Virus record (IMG/VR): IMGVR_UViG_3300005805_000486
Coordinates: 1 to 24,167 of that record
Strand: one strand, 5' to 3'
DNA from: a virus
Lineage: Duplodnaviria; Caudoviricetes
Length of the DNA stretch: 24,167 bases
The translations under genes were made by a program, and so were the position numbers. The stretch's first letter is position 1. Every line of letters starts with the position of its first letter. Under the pieces are notes generated by a model. It saw only the letters and a list, made by a program, of their open reading frames with translations, made no database searches and was not told the origin of the DNA. This document shows positions 11,989-23,651 of the stretch, piece after piece.

Positions 11989-14583
11989 TTATTCTCCGAT
12001 TGCTAATATATAAGGTGTTACAATGGCAAACAAACTTCGAGTAAATGTTCTACCGCTGATAGTGCCTAATCTACGATTAATCACAAGATCCTCACCAATC
12101 CTAAAATCTCCTTCTTGATCGGTGCTGGTAAAATTAACCTTTCCACCATTAAGTTCTACCACTTCATTAACTTGAACAGCCACGCCACCTTGATAGGGCA
12201 ATGCTGTATTTACATTAACCCCAGCACCAACCCATTCGAAGGTTTGGTTACTGGCTGTAATTTTACTAAATTGATGAAAAGAAATAGCCGTATTATCAGC
12301 CACAGGGTTGACAATTCTAGGATAAACTTCGATCTGACTAGTATAAGCATTTTCCACAAGATTTATCACAATATTAAACAATGCATCGCTGACTGTGACT
12401 TCTGCTCCGGTGGCTGCTGCTGTGCTAGTATTTTGCACGACAGTATTTTGTAGTGCTGTGACCACAGTGTTAACCAAGCATTGTGCTGCTATAGTTTTAA
12501 GGTAGGAGAAAGTTGCTGCTGTGGCAGTTCTTTCCCCTGCGGGTATTTGTAGTGTTCCTCCGCTATAATACTCGTCACCTGCGTCCACAGTTTGACTATT
12601 TCCTCCGTAGAGTAAATCATAGGTTATAGCATTTACCATAAATCTAATATCGGCCTGGCATTTACTTTGATTATAAGTTAACGTAGGGTAGTTTGCTGAA
12701 ATATAAGCAATACCCTCGGCAACCAAAAACTCTTTGTTGGATTGTAGTATTTGTTTGGCGTTGCTTTTTCCTGTGGCTACACCTATTGGATTGTTATAGA
12801 TTAACAAAGGTGCAGGATTACCTTGTAGTATGCTTATAATAATATCAAAGTTATTGCTAACTGCTGTGTATTCGGCACCTGGCGTAGCAATAATCTCTAG
12901 GACCTTAGTCTTAGCAAAGTTTATTGCGGAAACTGTTTCTGTTAACTGGTCATTGATTACCACACTGGCGCTGGCTCTATAATAACTAAGACCAGCAAGT
13001 ATGGACTTATAGTTGGTGCCAAATACCATATCATCTAATACAGCATCTATAATTATGCCAACATCTCTACTACACTTAAAATTATTATAGTTTAAATCGA
13101 TGTAGGTTTCGTTTAGAAAATCTATAGTATCGATTTGAATTTTAGTTTTATAATCTAACACATTACTTCTAATATTCTTTGCCTGTGCAGGCTGCGGTGT
13201 AAAATCAGGGCCTTGTATGGCACTGATACCATCATTTAAAGGATGTATTCCGTTAGTAGATAACACTTCATATACTGTAGTATCACCTGCAAATTTAAAA
13301 GCATCGCCTACATTTGGAATTTGTGTAAGATTATCTATTAAAATTGTAGACCCAAGAGCAGCCCCGTTAGTCTTTGCTGTATACAATGCGGAACTTAGGC
13401 CATCTGCCTTTAAACCTACATTACCAAAACTGCTGTTACTGTTAGTTAGGCTACAAAAACCACCGCTCTCGGCTAAAATTGCAGTATCACAACATATGGT
13501 AAACACGCTGACCAACTGAGCATTACCTCTGTTTTTCATATGTATACCAATACCGCCTTGGTTATATTGTGTGTAAGCATCAACTACAAAACTCTTAAGC
13601 CCTTGACTATGTGCTCCATCAATTCTTAATCCTGTCCCTGTAGTAGTCATACTAGTGCAGTTTTGAACATATGGACTTGTGTGTATCGCACCGGCACTTC
13701 CATCTGTAGGAAACGCCACTGCTGCTGAAGGATATTCGTGATCCTTAAAAGTCATATGAGCCAAATATACTCCATTAGTCACCCAAAATAAATCCTGTGT
13801 TTTGTAATAAGGTCTAACAGTAACGCTGCGAAGATTATCTCCTACAATGCTAACACCTTCAGGAACTATTATAGGATTTAATTCTGTATAATCTCCACTC
13901 TTTACAAAAATTGTTGTTCCGTAACTGGCTGCGGCCACGGCATTTTTTATAGTAAGTTTACTAGTGTTTAAACTTGTTCCATTTTGTGTATCACTGCCAC
14001 TCTTGCTTACATATAAAACATTGGCCACGGCACTAGGACTAGCAACGATACTGTCAACATAAGCCTTAGTAACTGCATCAGTTGCATCCACTGGTGTAGC
14101 CAAGTTGCTAATTCTGGCATTATTAACATTTACAGTGCCGTTACCATTTACTCTTAGTTCTAAGTCACTGTTACTATTGGTTGTTTGTATAACATTATCA
14201 TCAATGAGGATATTGCCATTAAAGAACTGTGCTGCATTAATATTACGCCATTGTAGATCTGGCTTGCCTATATCAAATATGTTATTTTGGCTAGGAATTA
14301 AATCGCCGTCTAATCTGCCAAATATATTGATTGTATCGCCAGCACTGTTACCTAATTGTGTGTCGCCATTAACAATGAGATTGCCATTGACAGTGAGATT
14401 GCCTGGTAAGATTTGATTGCCGCCACCTCCGCCAGTAAGTATGATGCCCCCAGGTGTTACACCGTCGCCTACTCTAATTGTGTTATCATCACTATGATAC
14501 CATAGCACACCAGGCCGTTCTATCCTAGTGGCACCATCGCCATAATTGCGTCTACTGGTAAAGAAATCTTGGGTAAAGGACAT
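11989..14583 (-). CDS. Virion-type beta-helix spike/fibre protein (864 aa) with two inserted phycobiliprotein-like (globin-fold) domains
   Basis: ATG at 14583 after AAGGAG; N-terminal LWY..D.NTIRVGDG.TPGG; DAVTKAYVD neck; YVSKSGSD..NG...TIK.A...TIFVKSGDY.E beta-helix; helical repeats KCSRDVG and KCQADIR. Confidence 0.75.
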   Translation of the reverse strand: MSFTQDFFTSRRNYGDGATRIERPGVLWYHSDDNTIRVGDGVTPGGIILTGGGGGNQILPGNLTVNGNLIVNGDTQLGNSAGDTINIFGRLDGDLIPSQNNIFDIGKPDLQWRNINAAQFFNGNILIDDNVIQTTNSNSDLELRVNGNGTVNVNNARISNLATPVDATDAVTKAYVDSIVASPSAVANVLYVSKSGSDTQNGTSLNTSKLTIKNAVAAASYGTTIFVKSGDYTELNPIIVPEGVSIVGDNLRSVTVRPYYKTQDLFWVTNGVYLAHMTFKDHEYPSAAVAFPTDGSAGAIHTSPYVQNCTSMTTTGTGLRIDGAHSQGLKSFVVDAYTQYNQGGIGIHMKNRGNAQLVSVFTICCDTAILAESGGFCSLTNSNSSFGNVGLKADGLSSALYTAKTNGAALGSTILIDNLTQIPNVGDAFKFAGDTTVYEVLSTNGIHPLNDGISAIQGPDFTPQPAQAKNIRSNVLDYKTKIQIDTIDFLNETYIDLNYNNFKCSRDVGIIIDAVLDDMVFGTNYKSILAGLSYYRASASVVINDQLTETVSAINFAKTKVLEIIATPGAEYTAVSNNFDIIISILQGNPAPLLIYNNPIGVATGKSNAKQILQSNKEFLVAEGIAYISANYPTLTYNQSKCQADIRFMVNAITYDLLYGGNSQTVDAGDEYYSGGTLQIPAGERTATAATFSYLKTIAAQCLVNTVVTALQNTVVQNTSTAAATGAEVTVSDALFNIVINLVENAYTSQIEVYPRIVNPVADNTAISFHQFSKITASNQTFEWVGAGVNVNTALPYQGGVAVQVNEVVELNGGKVNFTSTDQEGDFRIGEDLVINRRLGTISGRTFTRSLFAIVTPYILAIGE

Positions 14584-14612
14584 CAATCCGCTCCTTACCA
14601 GTATTTATCAGA

Positions 14613-15011
14613 CTATTTTTGTTGGGCTGATTCGTAAACTTTGGTTAATTCGTCAAAGTCGCTGCTTAAATCGTAGACAGTTTTATCTTCGTTAATATGT
14701 GCTGGATTGCCTGCTTCGTCGCCGAATCCATCTTGTGGGCCGTGTTCGCTGTCAGCACCATTGTTATCCAGGATTTGATTGAGCACTGTGCTGCGCTTGC
14801 CTGACTTATGCTTTTCTAGTTCCAGTAATTGTTGTCCTGGAAACACCCATACAGGATCTTCAGGCAGTTCGCCTTCATTGTAAATGGCTTCTTTAGGATC
14901 TATGGCCGTAGTCGATACCTGCGGGTCGCCACCTCCACTAGGTATGGTGATATTGATAGGAATGTTTATAGTTACAGTTTTATCTTCTGTTAAAAAATCA
15001 CGGGCTCGCAT
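14613..15011 (-). CDS. Acidic hypothetical protein, possible head-packaged protein (132 aa)
   Basis: N-terminal MRARDFLTE resembles T4 capsid-targeting leaders; TAAATA 5 nt upstream. Confidence 0.65.
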   Translation of the reverse strand: MRARDFLTEDKTVTINIPINITIPSGGGDPQVSTTAIDPKEAIYNEGELPEDPVWVFPGQQLLELEKHKSGKRSTVLNQILDNNGADSEHGPQDGFGDEAGNPAHINEDKTVYDLSSDFDELTKVYESAQQK

Positions 15012-15023
15012 ATGTGTATTTAG

Positions 15024-16367
15024 TTAAACTAAGTCGTGCCAATTCAAACTTCCATAGACTACCCCACCAGTTACAAGATGCCTTGTTGCTAGAGTAATAG
15101 TATCACTGGTAGGAGTTTGATCTCTGCCTAATTGTTGTTCCCAGTTATATTCTATTTCTTGAGTTCTTAGGTTATTACTTTGATTACTACTGGCAAAGAA
15201 GCCACTGTCTTCTATTGTGCCTCCTGCCATACTAGTCGCAGACACATTGTATTCTACATTGCCGCCACTATCAGTATGTGCTACCCAGGCACCTCCAGTG
15301 ATTGTGGCATTTCTGATAATAGCATATTCATATAGGCTGTTATTACCGTCACCTGCTATATGAACAGCACCTGGTAAAATCACAGCATCTTCTCTACCTG
15401 ATGCTAGCCTAATGCTTACCACAGGGGCCCATCCTGAGGCCACTGCGGTTGATGCTATGGCTGTAGTTCTTGTGGCTCGCCACTGTCTTGTTCTTGCTTC
15501 ATATCCACCTTCACTCATAGCACTAGCACAGATTTGTAGCATAGTGCTAGATGCTGAAGTTGCTGCGGTATTCTCTATTTCGTATCGTATGGGCAGAGTA
15601 GCAGTAGTCATATATACACTGCTTAATATATTAGCGTGGTGAAATACGTGACATACAATAAACTGTCCGTTTATAACAAACCCACAGCGAACACTGCCTA
15701 CTCCTAGCCACTCTATGTCTGTCCAAAATATCTGTGCTTTGGTAGTATCTAGCGTAATACCACTGATGCCTGTGCCGTCTAACTTATCTACATTCCAGTT
15801 AGCCTGAGCAATCCTTTCACTGGTATCATCTACACTGCCAGAAGTGTTCTTTCTTATTACTAGATAACGTGATGTATTATCCTGCTCAAAGTATACACCA
15901 TTAGTAGATTTAAAATATCCTACACGCTGTCTAAGATTGGCTTTAGCTGGTGCCATTACAAACGTCACTAGAATTAGCAAACTTTTACCAGGTTGATAAG
16001 CAAATACTCTATATGTTTCTCTATAAACTTTGTCGCCGCTGGCCGTACCCACTGTCATTAATATGCTACTTTGATAGGTATCATAACTGGTAGTGCCCGC
16101 GCCTGCTGTCACTGTGCTAAATTTTCCATTATCTTTGTAACGATGAGCACTGTCAAACAGTGTTACTGGATTACTGATTCTCAGTCTTCCAAATGCGTCG
16201 GAACTGGCGCTGATATTGCCCAGTGTATTAAATCCTGTGCCGCCGATGTTATTGACTCTAAGCACCGGTTGTCCACTGGCATCATACTCCATTGCGTAGT
16301 GAACGCTATAAAGGTGGCTTTCTTGTGGGTGACTATAATTAGTGCTGTTATTTTCTAAACGACTCAA
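15024..16367 (-). CDS. Conserved phage protein, predicted lectin/jelly-roll-like beta fold (447 aa)
   Basis: DAFGRLRISNP.TLFDS, YQPGKS, EWLGVG.VR.GF, TATLPIRYEI motifs seen in large-phage proteins; TTG start overlapping the upstream TGA; start uncertain. Confidence 0.65.
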   Translation of the reverse strand: MSRLENNSTNYSHPQESHLYSVHYAMEYDASGQPVLRVNNIGGTGFNTLGNISASSDAFGRLRISNPVTLFDSAHRYKDNGKFSTVTAGAGTTSYDTYQSSILMTVGTASGDKVYRETYRVFAYQPGKSLLILVTFVMAPAKANLRQRVGYFKSTNGVYFEQDNTSRYLVIRKNTSGSVDDTSERIAQANWNVDKLDGTGISGITLDTTKAQIFWTDIEWLGVGSVRCGFVINGQFIVCHVFHHANILSSVYMTTATLPIRYEIENTAATSASSTMLQICASAMSEGGYEARTRQWRATRTTAIASTAVASGWAPVVSIRLASGREDAVILPGAVHIAGDGNNSLYEYAIIRNATITGGAWVAHTDSGGNVEYNVSATSMAGGTIEDSGFFASSNQSNNLRTQEIEYNWEQQLGRDQTPTSDTITLATRHLVTGGVVYGSLNWHDLV

Positions 16368-16588
16368 GCCCAGGGCCTTCCTGCCAATAATCCGCCTGTG
16401 TTAGCATTGTTTTCTAGTGTATTATCTGCTTTATATTTGGTAGGTAATTGACTTATGTCTGCGGATGTATCTGAGTATCTACCAGGTTCTACTAGATTAC
16501 GATCTGCTCTATCCTGTCCGGCCAATGCTAATTTTGCTTCTTGTCTTAGTTTTTTATTGGCCAATGTTGAAATACCGTTTGCTGCCAT
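16364..16588 (-). CDS. Small hypothetical protein (74 aa, MAANGIST...GRPW)
   Basis: ATG at 16588 overlaps the upstream TAA (TAATG) and has a GGAG SD. Confidence 0.7.
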   Translation of the reverse strand: MAANGISTLANKKLRQEAKLALAGQDRADRNLVEPGRYSDTSADISQLPTKYKADNTLENNANTGGLLAGRPWA

Positions 16589-16887
16589 TATGCTCTCCAT
16601 TGTGCTCCAGGATACATACTAGGAGCATTGGTTCTAATATCTGCTGGATGTTTGCTCTTATGGACGTCATCACCACTGGCAATAACGGCATCTACATCTG
16701 CATATTGTGGATTAGGTTCGTTGGCCAATACACTCATTTCTCCGTTAGGCACAAGCCCTGCAATTTGTTTAAGACGAGGAATATCAGCATCGGTATAGCC
16801 AATGGGCTGATCATCTGGCACGAATTGCTCCGGGTCGATTTGATCTAGTGTATCTAAAAATGCTCTAATAATTTCGGCAATCTGCAT
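16588..16887 (-). CDS. Acidic hypothetical protein, possible head-packaged protein (99 aa)
   Basis: MQIAEII leader; TAAATA 18 nt upstream. Confidence 0.7.
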
Positions 16888-16904
16888 AATTTTTCCAATA
16901 TGCT

Positions 16905-16922
16905 ATATTTAGTGTTAAATAT
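16905..16922. promoter_or_regulatory. Back-to-back TAAATA late-promoter-like motifs (ATATTTA-GTGT-TAAATAT)
   Basis: Inverted repeat in the 39-nt divergent gap between 16887(-) and hemA 16927(+); same hexamer precedes many other genes. Confidence 0.6.
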
Positions 16923-16926
16923 CGTT

Positions 16927-18126
16927 ATGATAAACAAACAGCCATTCAGCGACTTAATTAAAAATTTAAAAGACACAGGCAAATACAGAGTGTTCAACGA
17001 TATAGTAAGGGAAAACGGCCGATTCCCTAGAGCAATATGGTATGGTCCTTATGCTATTAAAAACATCGTTAACTGGTGCTCTAACGACTATCTCGGTATG
17101 GGTCAGCACAAGGTCGTCATAGACGCAATGCACACCGCCCTGGACCACACAGGCACAGGATCGGGAGGAACTAGAAATATAGGCGGCACTAGCCACTACC
17201 ACGTTGCACTAGAATACGAATTAGCCACACTACACAGTAAGGCCAAGGCGCTGCTATTCAGCAGTGCCTACGTGGCCAATGAATGGACATTAATTGCTCT
17301 AAGCAAAATTGTGCCTAATATTGAGTTTATATCAGACAGTAATAATCATAACAGTCTCATTGTTGGCATCAATCATAGTCGTGCTGCTAAAAGTATATTC
17401 CGGCACAATGATATGGAAATGCTGGAGCAGATGCTTAAGGCCAGTAGAGAAGCAGGACATACACCTTGTATAGTATTTGAATCAGTTTATAGTATGGACG
17501 GTGATGTGGGTCATATTAAGGAAGTAGTTCAACTGGCTGATCGTTATGAAGCAATGACCTACTTAGACGAAGTTCACGCTGTGGGGCTATATGGCTATCA
17601 CGGGGCAGGAAAATTAGAAGAACTCGGTCTACAAGATCGCATTGACATAGTTAATGGAACCTTGGGAAAAGCGTTTGGGGTGCAGGGTGGCTACATTGCT
17701 GGCGATGCTGTGGTAATTGATGCTATTAGATCAGTAGCAGCAGGATTTATCTTTACTACATCAATGAGCCCGGTAACCTGTGCAGGGGCCTTGGCTGCTG
17801 TAAAATATCTAAAAGATCATAACGAACTTAGACAACGACATCAACTTAGAGCACAGCAACTAAAAGATAAACTCATAGAACACCAGCTACCTTTGATGCA
17901 GTGTAGCACTACTCATATTGTGCCAGTGCTTGTAGGTGAAGCTAAACGATGTAAGACTATGAGTGATTATCTACTTAATGAACACGGCATTTATGTGCAG
18001 CCCATAAACTACCCCACAGTTGATGTGGGCACAGAAAGATTAAGATTCGCTCCAACACCCCTACACGACGAAGGTATGATAGAGGACTTGGTTAATGCGC
18101 TATCAGACTGTTTTACACAACCTTAG
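16927..18126 (+). CDS. hemA: 5-aminolevulinate synthase (PLP-dependent, C4/Shemin pathway)
   Basis: [58 protein letters not shown] (PLP Lys), [26 protein letters not shown]; start at 16927 preferred over 16900. Confidence 0.93.
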
Positions 18127-18343
18127 ACAATAGCCAGACACTTTGAACTAGCATAGTTTTTAGTTCAATGTCGTCTGCTTCGCTGTCTAGTTTATCTGTT
18201 CGAACTAGATCCTCTAATAATGCTTTGTATTCATCAGCACTGACCTGTCCTGACTGTAGAGCATCGTGTAATTGTATGGCGTATTGAGCCCTTTGTGCAG
18301 CCCACGGTTTATTACAATTGGCAATGTTATATAATTCCTGCAT
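18113..18343 (-). CDS. Small helical hypothetical protein (76 aa)
   Basis: Abuts the upstream lipoprotein stop; overlaps hemA 3' end by 14 nt convergently. Confidence 0.65.
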
Positions 18344-18724
18344 TTAGAATCTCCCTAAGACTGCTCGTGCTGCTCGCTCTGTTTGTGTTAGAAGTAATTC
18401 TCGCTTTAATTTACAATACATTTCACTGGCATCTTTTTCTTTAGTCCTGTCGTGAAACTCTTGCACGGTGTCTTTAATAGGCTTGATTAATCTTAGCATA
18501 TCTCTATGGTCTCTGCCTTGACTGTATAGTTCAAACCATTCTACATTACGCAGTATTCTCTGTGCCTGTGGATAGTGTGGCTGCTTACAGTCTAGGTAGG
18601 CCACTTCCATTCTTACATCTGTAATACGCTGTGCTTGATTGGCATCCCAGAAACTGGGAATATAGTCCTTGATAGTGCTGCATCCTGCAAGAGCAATGAC
18701 GAGCACAAAGACCAAGGATCTCAT
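18344..18724 (-). CDS. Putative lipoprotein (126 aa)
   Basis: MRSLVFVLVIALAGC: basic N-terminus, hydrophobic core, LAGC lipobox; ATG coupled to the upstream TAA. Confidence 0.75.
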   Translation of the reverse strand: MRSLVFVLVIALAGCSTIKDYIPSFWDANQAQRITDVRMEVAYLDCKQPHYPQAQRILRNVEWFELYSQGRDHRDMLRLIKPIKDTVQEFHDRTKEKDASEMYCKLKRELLLTQTERAARAVLGRF

Positions 18725-19158
18725 TAGTTGCACCAACTCTGTTTGGCTTCTCCGTAATACTCGCGAGCGAAGCCGTTCTTGATTAATTCTGCTCTTAGGC
18801 TTACACCATTTAGTATCATATCACCTAATACACGCCCACCAAACTTGTCCCACCCATAAAGAACAACCTGATGTTTTTGTGTAGTAGCAACTGCGTTTTT
18901 AGTAAATGCTGTCGCAGCCTGCCCACGCTGATCTTCACTTGGGCATTGAGCACGGAATCCTTTTTCAGGAGTATCAACACCATAGATCCTAACTGCCAGT
19001 TCAGGCTTAAGGGGTGCTGGCAAATATGGTGCTGCTATAACCACTGTATCACCGTCATTTACTCTTACAATTTTTGCATCATATAATACGCCTTGTGGCT
19101 GCTTTTGTGCCCAGGCTAACAAGGGAAGTAGGGCTAGTAATACTAGTAGTCGTTTCAT
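18724..19158 (-). CDS. Thermonuclease (staphylococcal nuclease family) with signal peptide
   Basis: RV.DGDT, VRIYGVDTPE, DKFGGRVLG, LIKNGFA motifs; MKRLLVLLALLPLLAWA Sec signal; GGAG SD. Confidence 0.9.
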   Translation of the reverse strand: MKRLLVLLALLPLLAWAQKQPQGVLYDAKIVRVNDGDTVVIAAPYLPAPLKPELAVRIYGVDTPEKGFRAQCPSEDQRGQAATAFTKNAVATTQKHQVVLYGWDKFGGRVLGDMILNGVSLRAELIKNGFAREYYGEAKQSWCN

Positions 19159-19188
19159 TTATCGCTCCATTAAACTACTACTATTTAC

Positions 19189-19608
19189 TCAAAAACTGTT
19201 ATTGAACCAGCCTATTTTACGACCTTGTTCTATGCGTAGATCGTATTCTTCTACTGTGCTAGGAAAGCGCCAGGCCCATATAGCCACTAAGGCCATAAAC
19301 ACTGCTGTATATGCTATACCACGTACGGCTACACCGCCGGTATACATTAAGATTAAACTTACACTCATACTAGCCAGCATAAAGAATTTAAGTTTTAATG
19401 GAAACACACGCTTTTGATTCCAATTAGTTATAAAAGGTCCGAATATACGATGATTCATAATCCAGGCGTGCATCTTTGGACTAGACTTGGCAAAGCAGTA
19501 GGCAGCGAATACCACAAAAGGACTATATGGAAGTCCAGGAGTAATCACTCCTATGTAGGCCATTCCTAAACTAACGAATCCTAAACATAACCAAAAATAA
19601 CGTTTCAT
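19189..19608 (-). CDS. ybaN: YbaN/DUF454 family inner-membrane protein
   Basis: LG..SLG...IG...PGLP.SPF...AAYCFAKSS...H.W..NH..FGP.I.NW; ATG at 19608 overlaps the upstream TGA. Confidence 0.85.
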   Translation of the reverse strand: MKRYFWLCLGFVSLGMAYIGVITPGLPYSPFVVFAAYCFAKSSPKMHAWIMNHRIFGPFITNWNQKRVFPLKLKFFMLASMSVSLILMYTGGVAVRGIAYTAVFMALVAIWAWRFPSTVEEYDLRIEQGRKIGWFNNSF

Positions 19609-20468
19609 GCCATTCCCCAACTTCCTTCACTCTTTCGAGCCTGTAGATCAAATCCATTAGTGCATTGATATTTTGGACAAGCAATTGGGCCATTGAAGAC
19701 CTGAATACGATCTGTATAAATGTTTCCAAATCTAGTGCCGAAACACCAACCTCTATAAACATCACCTAACTGATTTATTACAATTTGTTCTGATCCTGCC
19801 CAACACATATGTCCGTAGAAATTATTTAAGTTATGTTGGCGCTTGAACTCTACAGTTTTGACAACTTCTTCTTGTCGAACAATCCCTCTAGTAAAATAAT
19901 AATAGTTCCATTGCTCCTTAGAATAGTTTAAGTATTGATTATTTCCTCTGGTAAAATTACTATATAGAAATTGTAATTGTAAATCAAAATTATAAGGCTT
20001 TAATGTTTCATAAACTGTAATTTGTTTATTCCAGTTATCTGGGCTTATTGGAAGTAAAATTGTAGGATTAAGATTTTTAAGTTCTTGCACTATACTAAAA
20101 AAGTGATCAAAGTCAGTGCCGTGATGATACGTAAGCTGTATTTGGCTGAGTTTATTCTTAATTGCTGCCCACCAGGATATATCAGCATATCCGTTAGATA
20201 CAAGCTGATATTTTATTTTAGGATTCGAATTTCTAGCTATAATTAGCTGTAGGTTTTGGCTATAAGTCGGCTCGCCACCTGTTATTTCTAAAGTAATATT
20301 GTCGTAAGATTCGCTTAATCTATCTAAGTTATCAAAAGCTTTGGTTAACTTTTCTAGTTCCGGAAAAGCATTGTCACCCTTGTATAATTCAGGGTGACAA
20401 TAACCACATCGTAAATTACATTGGTTAGCTAAACTCCATTGGATCTTTAGCTCAGAAATTCTCTCCAA
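19605..20468 (-). CDS. Radical SAM protein with C-terminal Cys-rich (SPASM/twitch-like) region
   Basis: CNLRCGYC (CxxxCxxC), TGGEPT, SNG; C-terminal CWAG..I...GDVY..WC...C....C; TTG start uncertain. Confidence 0.85.
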   Translation of the reverse strand: MERISELKIQWSLANQCNLRCGYCHPELYKGDNAFPELEKLTKAFDNLDRLSESYDNITLEITGGEPTYSQNLQLIIARNSNPKIKYQLVSNGYADISWWAAIKNKLSQIQLTYHHGTDFDHFFSIVQELKNLNPTILLPISPDNWNKQITVYETLKPYNFDLQLQFLYSNFTRGNNQYLNYSKEQWNYYYFTRGIVRQEEVVKTVEFKRQHNLNNFYGHMCWAGSEQIVINQLGDVYRGWCFGTRFGNIYTDRIQVFNGPIACPKYQCTNGFDLQARKSEGSWGMA

Positions 20469-21011: not shown

Positions 21012-21560
21012 TTAATCAAGTAGTTTTTGGACAAATTCCGAACTACTACATTCAATACCGTGTGTCCATTGCTCGGCACTGTCTAGCTCAAACACACTAT
21101 GGTAATTTGGTGTTGCTGTTAACCAACTGCTCTCGTGATTATATGGATGTCGCCCTTTTACTTCTTGCTCTAACTGATCAGGACTCCAAGCACACAATCC
21201 TAAGAACATACGCCAATATTTTGGCCTATCACCCATAGCTAATCGCTGTAATAAATCTGGTTGGCTACTAAGGCTAAACTTATTATCAATTTCTAAGGTA
21301 TTTTGACAACGCCAATCTGAACTATGTAAAATTGTAAGTGCCTTAAGATTTACTGGTCCACCCACGTAAACATATCCTGGTATATCATACTCTAGCCCTA
21401 GCTGTTTACTAAAGTCTAAAATAGTATTTTTACTGTTACGATTGAGAAGTATGCCCATACTACCTCGTCCATGATTTTCAGTAATAAAAATAACAGACTT
21501 TTGCCAAAAAGTTCCTCGTACATTGGGCGGTGCTATTAATAACTGTCCAGTAAAATTCAT
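21012..21560 (-). CDS. YqgE/AlgH (DUF179) family protein
   Basis: GQLLIAPP, F..SVI, G.MG..LNR, Y.GGPV, FLG...W...QL..E....W. Confidence 0.88.
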   Translation of the reverse strand: MNFTGQLLIAPPNVRGTFWQKSVIFITENHGRGSMGILLNRNSKNTILDFSKQLGLEYDIPGYVYVGGPVNLKALTILHSSDWRCQNTLEIDNKFSLSSQPDLLQRLAMGDRPKYWRMFLGLCAWSPDQLEQEVKGRHPYNHESSWLTATPNYHSVFELDSAEQWTHGIECSSSEFVQKLLD

Positions 21561-21584
21561 ATGGGGTATTTAATAGTACAGGAA

Positions 21585-21863
21585 TTACAATTGGCCTTTT
21601 CTGGTACCGTAATCTGGTAACGGACCTCCGTACTTTTTACCCTTTATTTTTTTACCGCCTACTGTTATTCTAGTAGAGCTCTTTCCGTGCCCAACTAAAT
21701 GGCTTTTTTGCCCTTCTCTAGCTCTAAGACCTTGGCTTTTACAACTTGCTAGGTTGCTGGCACCTAAATCTTTGTTCGATTTAGTGCTCAAGCATAAGGC
21801 ACGAGTGGCTTTTTCATCTAGGTCAGCAAGTTCTTCGTCTGTAATAAATTCTTGTATCAGCAT
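21585..21863 (-). CDS. Small basic protein with acidic leader, possible internal head protein (92 aa)
   Basis: ATG at 21863 (MLIQEFITDEE) avoids overlap with the upstream gene and lies 4 nt after TAAATA; Lys/Gly-rich C-terminus. Confidence 0.7.
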   Translation of the reverse strand: MLIQEFITDEELADLDEKATRALCLSTKSNKDLGASNLASCKSQGLRAREGQKSHLVGHGKSSTRITVGGKKIKGKKYGGPLPDYGTRKGQL

Positions 21864-21877
21864 TTTGTATTTATGGT

Positions 21878-22702
21878 TTAGACTTCTAAGTCTAGCCATT
21901 CATACACATTAAGCCATTTTCTGCCGCCTATTGTTTGTTTGAGATGTTTAAGATCTGCGCAGGTTTTAGTGCGAAACCTCGTCATTTCTTCATATGGAAC
22001 AGGAACAAAAACTATGCTTACTCCTTCTTGTTCTGCAATTGTTTCTGCAATATGTAAAAAACTATGCGGTAACCCTGCCCCTACATTCCAAATTCCGCTT
22101 CCTTTGACCTTTTTAATAAAATCTAAGTGTAACTGACATACATCTCCTACCCAAGTCCAGTCCCTATAAATGTGTTCTGCGTTTTCCCACACTTCAATAT
22201 AGCCTTGCTTTCGAGCCTGCTCTCTCCACTTATGTATAGCATTAGCTCTGCGTCCACGTAGGTGCATCCATTTACCATACACATTAAAGTATCTAAACCC
22301 TTGCACAAATATATTATGTTCTCTCTCAAAAACCCAGCGATCAAATAAGTATTTGCTCCAAGCATAGGGTGTTTGCGGATGACAAGGTGCTGACTCTTCA
22401 AAGTTATTTGTTTCGCCATACACAGTACTAGAGCTGGCATATTGCAGATTTACGCCTAGTCTATTACATTCATGAAACAAATAACAACTGAAGTCATAGT
22501 TTTGAATCATACACTTTTCTACGTCAGTTTCGCTTACATCTGCCACTGCTCCAAGGTGTACAACCCAATCATATTGTTTTACATCGGGCCAATGCTTTGG
22601 ATCCCAGTCATACCCATCAACACGCCAATCAGGCTGACGACCTAAAAAGGCCGTCATATTTTTACCTATAAATCCTTCTGATCCGGTGACTAAAATCTTC
22701 AT
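21878..22702 (-). CDS. rfaD: ADP-L-glycero-D-manno-heptose-6-epimerase-like extended SDR
   Basis: ILVTG.EGFIG, HLGA, NY.FS..L, YASS..VYG, YAWSK (YxxxK), GFRYFNVYG, RD...V.DV, GIWNVG.G, T.ADL..L. Confidence 0.8.
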   Translation of the reverse strand: MKILVTGSEGFIGKNMTAFLGRQPDWRVDGYDWDPKHWPDVKQYDWVVHLGAVADVSETDVEKCMIQNYDFSCYLFHECNRLGVNLQYASSSTVYGETNNFEESAPCHPQTPYAWSKYLFDRWVFEREHNIFVQGFRYFNVYGKWMHLRGRRANAIHKWREQARKQGYIEVWENAEHIYRDWTWVGDVCQLHLDFIKKVKGSGIWNVGAGLPHSFLHIAETIAEQEGVSIVFVPVPYEEMTRFRTKTCADLKHLKQTIGGRKWLNVYEWLDLEV

Positions 22703-22709
22703 CCAATAT

Positions 22710-23651
22710 TTACTGGAACAATCCTGTAGACTCTAAACTTGTGAGTAAATTTATGCGCTGTTTCATTTTGTCATACATCTTTGTATCACGTTCGATCAAT
22801 ATACAATTTCTTTCTAAATTATAACAGGCTGCTCCTGTGCTACCACTACCAGCGAAAGTATCTAACACTGTATCTCCTGGCTTTGATAATAAGGACACAA
22901 AGTATTCTAATAATTCTACAGGCTTTTCAGTAGGATGTATCTTGCCTTTACCTAATCCGCCACTGTAAACAATGGTGTTTGGAATAACACATTCAACCAA
23001 TCCATCAACAGTTTTTCTATTTGATAGCATCTTATCTGATTCTTTGCGGGCTTGATCAAATAACTGATTAAGATTGTTCAATGCACCTGGTTCTTTGGCT
23101 AGCTTATAGATAATACTGCTAATTTTATCTGCGGCACTATAACGTTCCACAATAGTATCTTTGGCAGCGTTTGAGTTAAATGTGCGTTTACCTCCAGGCT
23201 TGATTCCCCATAAAATATATTCACAGGCGCTAACTGGATTTACACTGCGATTAAATGGAACTGCTGCTGGCTTTTTCCAAGTCCATATACGCTTGGGTTC
23301 GAAACCAGTTTGCTCCATTATTTTCCATAGATAGCTAACATATTGGTCGCTAATAAAAACAGCAAAAGCTCCACCTTTACGAAGCTTGGTATACCATAGT
23401 GTACTCCATTCAGTCATTTGAGCTATAAACTCTTCGTGCCCAACATCGTCCCAATCCTGCTCAAACGATTCACTAAACCGTTGGCTATGTATACTGTTTT
23501 TATTTTCCCCTGTATCTTTATCAACCCAAATAGGTTTAGCACCATCTGAGCTGATGTTATAAGGTGGATCTGTTAATAGTAAATCTATACTGTTGTTTTT
23601 GATTTGATCAGAGACTTCTATACAGTCTCCTTGGATAGTTGTAATATTCAT
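22710..23651 (-). CDS. Site-specific DNA methyltransferase (N6-adenine/N4-cytosine, beta-class motif order)
   Basis: GDC, DL..TDPPY catalytic motif near the N-terminus, HPTEKP, VLD.FAGSGST SAM-binding motif near the C-terminus. Confidence 0.92.
   Translation of the reverse strand: MNITTIQGDCIEVSDQIKNNSIDLLLTDPPYNISSDGAKPIWVDKDTGENKNSIHSQRFSESFEQDWDDVGHEEFIAQMTEWSTLWYTKLRKGGAFAVFISDQYVSYLWKIMEQTGFEPKRIWTWKKPAAVPFNRSVNPVSACEYILWGIKPGGKRTFNSNAAKDTIVERYSAADKISSIIYKLAKEPGALNNLNQLFDQARKESDKMLSNRKTVDGLVECVIPNTIVYSGGLGKGKIHPTEKPVELLEYFVSLLSKPGDTVLDTFAGSGSTGAACYNLERNCILIERDTKMYDKMKQRINLLTSLESTGLFQ

Follow-up and report, generated by a model that had tools for sequence, protein, structure and literature searches.

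Phycobiliprotein-like tail-fibre repeats, haem oxygenase and an optional, probably late 5-aminolevulinate synthase: a possible route to pigmented particles in jumbo phages

Why should a phage carry a gene for 5-aminolevulinate (ALA) synthase (alaS, also called hemA) close to a gene for a virion protein with phycobiliprotein-like repeats? The question is raised by a stretch of 24,167 nucleotides of viral DNA (Caudoviricetes; IMG/VR record IMGVR_UViG_3300005805_000486), referred to here as the window, a 24-kb contig that is the entire genome record of its phage and whose left two thirds hold fibre, baseplate and virion protein genes. A first-pass annotation had proposed that alaS and ybaN form, beside the phycobiliprotein-like gene, a local system that supplies tetrapyrroles late in infection for a pigment of the particle. 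We find that the parts are real but do not make up a local module, the link being one at the level of the whole genome. What appears to be stable in this clade is a core of repeat domain, haem oxygenase (HO) and bilin reductase, with alaS as an optional insert and the route placed under late-type promoters. Our tentative proposal is that aquatic jumbo phages whose hosts are non-photosynthetic use HO and reductase, with AlaS as an option, to turn haem into bilin late in infection and to pigment their own tail fibres covalently. Alone, viral alaS is nothing new, and neither is the pairing of HO with a reductase in phages; the within-clade anatomy that this locus adds consists of the stable core, the optional alaS, the finding that ybaN is no partner here, and the late-type promoters.

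The putative acceptor is an 865-residue probable tail-fibre or virion protein with two globin-fold repeats, encoded on the minus strand at 11989..14586 (start codon TTG at 14586 or ATG at 14583). In PHROG it matches families of tail fibres, most closely phrog_17885 (E 1e-81), and it is presumably located in the particle. Repeat 1 (12820..13188, minus strand) has an intact C505-S-R-D motif, and repeat 2 (12427..12771, minus strand) reads C643-Q-A-D, with the arginine lost; the full CxRD motif was thus seen in the first repeat and not in the second. A predicted model of fibre residues 465-750 (predicted local distance difference test score 90.3) points to a phycobiliprotein fold, since its top eight structural matches are all phycobiliproteins (allophycocyanin, phycoerythrin and ApcE). 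Model residues 1-124, corresponding to repeat 1, superpose on allophycocyanin 8or7_A with Z 16.0 and a root-mean-square deviation of 2.0 Å over 120 residues, and repeat 2 superposes on phycoerythrin 1b8d_A with Z 13.7 and 2.2 Å over 121 residues. Lower in the ranking are photocobilins (Z 11.9) and haem globins. All five PDB sequence matches of the fibre (5/5) are phycobiliproteins, weak yet specific, and a precomputed PF00502 match is present on 18/120 fibre homologues among the matches listed. The CXRD sequence is a known bilin attachment motif (PMC10151467). Among 430 non-redundant repeats covering the site, collected with a profile that was built from motif-bearing repeats and may therefore raise the counts, the cysteine is kept in 412 and the full CxRD in 384. 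Fold prediction and motif together make the fibre repeats the likely bilin acceptor.

Set against the phycobiliproteins (PF00502; 8or7, 1b8d and the ApcE bilin domain 4xxi), the phage repeats share the predicted globin fold (Z 13.4-16.0, ~2 Å over ~120 residues) and, when the sequences are aligned, a CxRD in the corresponding position. They differ in being arranged in tandem within a fibre, in their low identity (12-22%), in the missing Pfam match and in the missing lyase of related phages; moreover, the structural matches start at subunit residue 33-49, so that nothing in the phage repeats corresponds to the N-terminal pairing helices. Could the ligand of these globin repeats be haem and not bilin, with alaS supplying it directly? 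Haem globins are among the structural matches of the model, with Z values up to 11.7, and in the weak Foldseek list fused haemoglobins come first. However, no histidine occurs in either repeat of the window, none is conserved in any column of the 430 repeats, a proximal histidine is therefore lacking, and phycobiliproteins rank above haem globins in the structure matches. We consider haem binding very improbable.

Is the domain accompanied by enzymes that could make a bilin? No HO or bilin reductase was found among the 28 window proteins scanned, as the first-pass annotation had stated; both enzymes are encoded in near-complete relatives. In a set of 50 records (the longest of 324 loci plus a 37-kb sister record; mostly fragments, picked by alaS or by domain), a reductase was detected in 33, HO in 32, the domain in 26 and alaS in 34. 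Eleven records were at least 70% complete, and eight of these carry domain, HO and reductase together, namely 5/5 of the domain-picked and 3/3 of the alaS-picked records. alaS was present in only 4/11, all four among those eight. All of these alaS-bearing relatives (4/4) show the 'broken cassette' pattern, with HO and reductase elsewhere in the genome. Three 100%-complete domain-picked genomes lack alaS, and two of them, G007 and G008, carry a fibre region 55-59% identical to that of the window. One genome, G078, lacks domain, HO, reductase and alaS alike. From the gene order in G007 and G028, HO and reductase of the present phage would lie ~30 kb to the left of the window.

Among nrdB-picked records, a reductase was found in 7/8 of those with at least 20 kb downstream and in 9/14 of all. 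Capsid-picked records showed the domain in 10/13, reductase in 0/13 and alaS in 0/13, and were counted neither way, since by the gene order of the relative G006 they end before the regions with HO and alaS, or no further than their edge. One apparent counter-example, G057 (71% complete; domain present, HO and reductase not), was dropped: it shows the same matches as G056, shifted throughout by 112,576 bp, so that the bilin genes likely lie just past its end. Among cultured-phage records the domain occurs in 299, of which 298 belong to cyanophages and the other to a marine virus; it is present in four cyanophages that bear pcyA and also in S-PM2, which has nine matches to the repeat profile. 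Every near-complete domain-bearing genome examined has a bilin source in phage or host. Thus the domain accompanies a bilin source, the converse is not always true, and alaS comes and goes within the clade.

HO and reductase usually close a gene run (L340-L349, e.g. G006:34556-38799), and the genes before them are, we assume, chaperone-like (dnaK-, hsp20- and clpS-like). The locus G032:25654-34216 contains two HO-reductase pairs on opposite strands, ~7 kb apart.

What, then, is the role of alaS? The gene (16927..18126, plus strand) encodes an intact 5-aminolevulinate synthase of full length, 399 residues without an internal stop. It scores 558 bits with TIGR01821 (cut-off 338.55), while the BioF and Kbl models remain under their cut-offs. 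In the alignment to the R. capsulatus enzyme 2bwn, the lysine that binds pyridoxal phosphate is kept (K248 aligned to K248), and the haem-feedback histidine is replaced by arginine. Phage structural genes surround the gene, and this context, along with loss of a feedback residue, places the enzyme in the viral AlaS class. Relatives are encoded in 587 stretches of viral contigs; no true alaS was found in cultured phage records, where the best match, at 35% identity, is of the BioF/Kbl type. By itself alaS is ordinary.

As had been noted, the alaS start lies 2.3 kb from the start of the fibre gene, with four open reading frames (ORFs) between them. A 99-residue protein of no assigned function (16588..16887, minus strand) marks a slot in which alaS, when present, stands divergently upstream. 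We picked 80 metagenome loci by an unrelated core gene, of which 15 had the slot-marker gene and one was dropped for too short a flank; with redundancy kept, the slot was filled by alaS in 7/14. In the sister record a further gene of 397 residues is inserted beside the alaS slot (L001:8441-9634), which has no equivalent in the window; its CxxxCxxC motif is, we presume, radical-SAM-like.

The dedicated module put forward at first, with alaS, ybaN and this fibre kept together and co-regulated for particle pigment, would account for several of these features. A TAAATA motif is common to its parts, the four alaS-bearing records that are at least 70% complete all hold domain, HO and reductase, and alaS lies within ~10 kb of a domain gene in G001, G024, G058 and L090. 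However, the domain flanks alaS in 1/80 alaS loci (1/40 of those with at least 6 kb upstream), and in G006 alaS is ~88 kb from the nearest domain gene. Both independently picked loci with a domain beside the slot are alaS-negative, and the complete G007 and G008 have close fibre homologues and no alaS. The number of repeats does not follow alaS either, being 8, 8 and 9 in alaS-less genomes versus 9, 6 and 12 in alaS-bearing ones.

The behaviour of ybaN also argues against a module. This DUF454 membrane protein gene (19189..19620, minus strand; PF04304 105 bits, cut-off 35.1) had been described as following hemA; in fact it converges on alaS, with three genes in between (18113..19158, minus strand), encoding proteins of 76 and 130 residues without known function and a staphylococcal-nuclease homologue. 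Lying on the minus strand and three genes away, it cannot share the alaS transcript and is outside any alaS operon in this phage. It stands on the strand opposite to alaS in 23/23 of the loci that have both, among 80 alaS loci, and occurs in 5/5 near-complete relatives, including 3/3 complete genomes without alaS. An alaS followed by ybaN on one strand, which would suit a module, was seen in G013 and G027 alone among the regions read. A DUF454 gene induced by iron starvation has been reported (PMC7970244). We judge a dedicated module unlikely, and alaS and the fibre gene are likely chance neighbours.

Is alaS expressed late? Upstream of it, as first described, are back-to-back TAAATA motifs, TATTTA-GTGT-TAAATA at 16906..16921, which are likely divergent late promoters on both strands; the halves lie at 16906-16911 (minus) and 16916-16921 (plus), and the rightward half stops 5 nucleotides short of the alaS ATG. 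The leftward half would drive a unit that includes a 447-residue virion structural protein (15024..16367, minus strand; phrog_1645, E 2e-116). The motif is not restricted to structural genes, as in the window it also precedes genes for an epimerase, an AlgH-like protein, an HNH protein and a nuclease; the fibre gene is headed directly by a late-type motif of its own, separate from the palindrome (14602..14607, minus strand). TAAATA occurs 19 times in the window versus 42 expected, with many copies immediately before start codons. From 77 alaS loci with enough upstream DNA we obtained 48 distinct upstream regions, and a forward TAAATA lies 5-8 nucleotides before the alaS ATG in 40 of these and a reverse copy is present in 41. 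A sigma-70 scan around alaS gave 10 sites versus 8.2 expected, with none on the plus strand beside the alaS start.

The 98%-complete relative G006 allowed us to ask which genes carry the motif. It lies within 60 nucleotides of 91/450 ORFs (shuffle mean 31.7, largest 48) and at 4-8 nucleotides before 34/450 (shuffle mean 2.7, largest 8). When genes are labelled by their PHROG matches (of the 192 ORFs with at least 190 residues, 140 were scanned) and one fibre by its repeats, 13/14 structural or lysis genes are in motif-headed units versus 6/13 replication or nucleotide genes; DNA polymerase, the clamp loader, gp55, SbcC and SbcD have no motif heading. G006 thus has what would be expected of T4-type late (gp55) promoters: the motif before structural genes, a gp55-type late sigma factor, and replisome genes free of the motif. 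In this genome alaS has its own motif, and HO and reductase are inside a motif-headed unit. More widely, the motif lies within 700 nucleotides upstream of 15/18 HO genes, compared to 197/1008 random windows. A related motif has been described as late-type in phage CBB (PMC5259590) and in cyanophages (PMC2984593), although in S-PM2 timing was poorly predicted by promoter class (PMC2984593). The conserved TAAATA before alaS, together with the motif over the structural genes of G006, makes late expression of alaS likely, in line with the original suggestion. At a distance of 4-8 nucleotides from the ATG (16916-16929 in the window), the motif leaves no space in which a ribosome could bind ahead of the start codon, and the late mRNAs of this clade may accordingly be leaderless.

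Given the late-type promoter, the fold and motif of the repeats and the bilin enzymes of relatives, none of three outcomes chosen beforehand as speaking against the idea was found outright. The account that we favour, and to which we would give something just short of an even chance, runs as follows. Late in infection, an AlaS without the feedback histidine would raise ALA, which host enzymes would turn into haem, topping up the pool. Phage HO and reductase, which this phage presumably also has, would convert the haem to bilin with host ferredoxin, and the bilin would attach without a lyase to Cys505-type sites in the fibre repeats. In this scheme alaS would be a booster that about half of the clade can dispense with, alaS, ybaN and fibre would be incidental neighbours, and the closeness of alaS to the fibre gene would reflect a variable fibre-gene island adjoining a fixed slot. 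With relatives encoding enzymes that make pigment, the particle may carry it.

A number of results weigh against this account. No bilin gene is seen in this phage, and none was found in the 37-kb sister record. Repeat 2 lacks the motif arginine that most close homologues keep, and the sequence likeness to phycobiliproteins is weak (E 0.15-0.44 and E 0.24-0.29), with no PF00502 match on the fibre protein at E 0.1 or better and no Foldseek match at E 0.001 or better. The excess of the motif before HO genes is modest when judged by shuffling (10.3 expected for the 15 seen), and nrdA, thyA and about one in five of the G006 ORFs are headed by the motif too. The near-complete genomes are kin, so that the co-occurrence counts, made with no tree correction, are not independent. 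The hoped-for CpeT/CpeS-type lyase and 2Fe-2S ferredoxin were not found in 5/5 near-complete relatives; BBAG-1 as well as BBAG-3 globins bind bilins without a lyase (PMC10151467), and the missing lyase therefore does not refute attachment. Lastly, G083 (76% complete, with the structural region present) has HO and reductase and no domain, and the same holds for the complete pelagiphage Mosig, even with filters off. Phage bilin genes therefore need another use as well.

These two genomes have arrangements of their own. G083 encodes a 1450-residue, repeat-free fibre homologue a few kilobases from HO and reductase (G083:249075-256470), which offers a natural negative control. In Mosig (L458; MT647606.1:38808-43977), HO and reductase immediately precede neck genes, and five genes ahead of them is one annotated as a putative ferrochelatase.

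Several of the adverse points would be explained if the particle were unpigmented, with alaS serving respiratory haem or the sparing of tRNA-Glu, HO and reductase serving to release iron or to supply a receptor of the host, and the repeats acting as structural spacers or receptor-binding modules. This agrees with the published reading of viral alaS (PMC11480375), with bilin genes that occur without the domain, with the missing lyase, and with a repeat number that is free to vary, from 2 here to 6 in the same gene of the sister (L001:1986-6437; alaS 99% identical) and 18-21 or more elsewhere (L104, L109). Against it, the cysteine is kept, mostly as the sole one (0.24 others per repeat), in a family with ~33% mean column identity, and we came across no near-complete genome that has the domain and lacks a bilin source in phage or host. 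An unpigmented particle is the main rival, and only somewhat less probable than the account that we favour.

Alternatively, the repeats might bind bilin and act as a sink or sensor, inside infected cells or at the surface of the host, by taking up the HO product or docking onto host biliproteins, and not as a stable virion pigment. A photoactive porphyrin accumulates on overexpression of viral AlaS (PMC11480375), and many cyanophages, which infect hosts rich in biliproteins, carry the domain. The repeats, however, sit within fibre and baseplate proteins, and psbA was not found in five near-complete relatives, whose hosts are hence likely not cyanobacteria. We hold this to be quite unlikely.

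If fibre pigmentation were true, virions would be pigmented and possibly responsive to light or oxidants, and the missing acceptor of phage-made bilins would have a name. Bilin making by phages without photosynthesis genes is an open question in PMC11480375, where the purpose of HO and reductase is called enigmatic and phytochromes or BBAGs are suggested; a fibre domain with a predicted phycobiliprotein fold and the attachment motif offers a cheap and direct way into the acceptor question. In the open-access literature we found no paper on a phycobiliprotein-like domain in virion proteins. The words globin, bilin and aminolevulin do not occur in the main text of a jumbo-phage survey (PMC7824862), and no phage acceptor is named in the accessible portion of PMC13446030.

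How does the locus compare with known systems? alaS in large freshwater phages was noted in 2020 (bioRxiv 10.1101/2020.02.13.942896), and viral alaS (valaS), often with hemO and pcyA/X, was published and shown to be active in 2024 by Wegner et al. (PMC11480375), who studied the CB_2 homologue. The present gene resembles valaS as described there in being an intact AlaS of an aquatic phage with the lysine kept and the feedback histidine missing, and in that related genomes hold HO and reductase elsewhere ('broken cassette' or stand-alone). A valaS-hemO-pcyA/X cassette beside alaS was not found in the window or the sister record. The difference is that promoter class and a phage-encoded acceptor are not named in the available text of that paper; the present locus contributes a late-type motif and a globin repeat in the virion. 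The BBAGs, or bilin biosynthesis-associated globins (Rockwell et al. 2023, PMC10151467), are likewise CXRD globins that accompany HO and bilin reductase in non-photosynthetic settings and bind bilin lyase-free, but they are bacterial and clustered with the enzymes, while the phage repeats are in virion proteins tens of kilobases from HO and reductase.

As regards the phage itself, the genomes of near-complete relatives are mostly 320-380 kb in size. The G006 major capsid protein is 64-70% identical to those of cultured jumbo phage isolates, which we take to be Rak2/GAP32/CBB-like T4-related phages. Besides this capsid likeness, such phages share with G006 a gp55-type sigma factor and ATAAATA/TAAATA before structural genes (PMC5259590). 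They differ in that four isolates, Phosso, Vibrio 2.275.O, PA5oct and XaC1, lack the domain, HO, reductase and ybaN, and in that cultured records are without a true alaS. A search with a guessed capsid motif gave no match.

The phage sequence is present in lake and freshwater metagenomes, with at least 50% of the window's words in 13/24 listed runs. All 30 window bins were covered in the DNA runs X1 and X3, in which no contig reaches from the fibre to ybaN, and the RNA run X20 yielded 13 short contig pieces. The sister record terminates ~5 kb to the left of the window. The marker is 91% identical in a metagenome contig of 56 kb, of which 10 kb on each side were covered.

Some neighbouring genes deserve mention. 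At 18113-18736, between alaS and ybaN, the 130-residue protein has a signal peptide and the sequence LAGC, which we take to be a lipobox-like motif; neither it nor its 76-residue partner has a family match, and of the 80 alaS loci 21 and 24 contain them. At 46-318 the window encodes a 90-residue protein of no known family that is highly conserved and has at least 592 relatives among viral contigs. The region 21012-23651 holds AlgH/YqgE-like, ADP-heptose-epimerase-like and DNA methylase genes, and TAAATA heads the first two.

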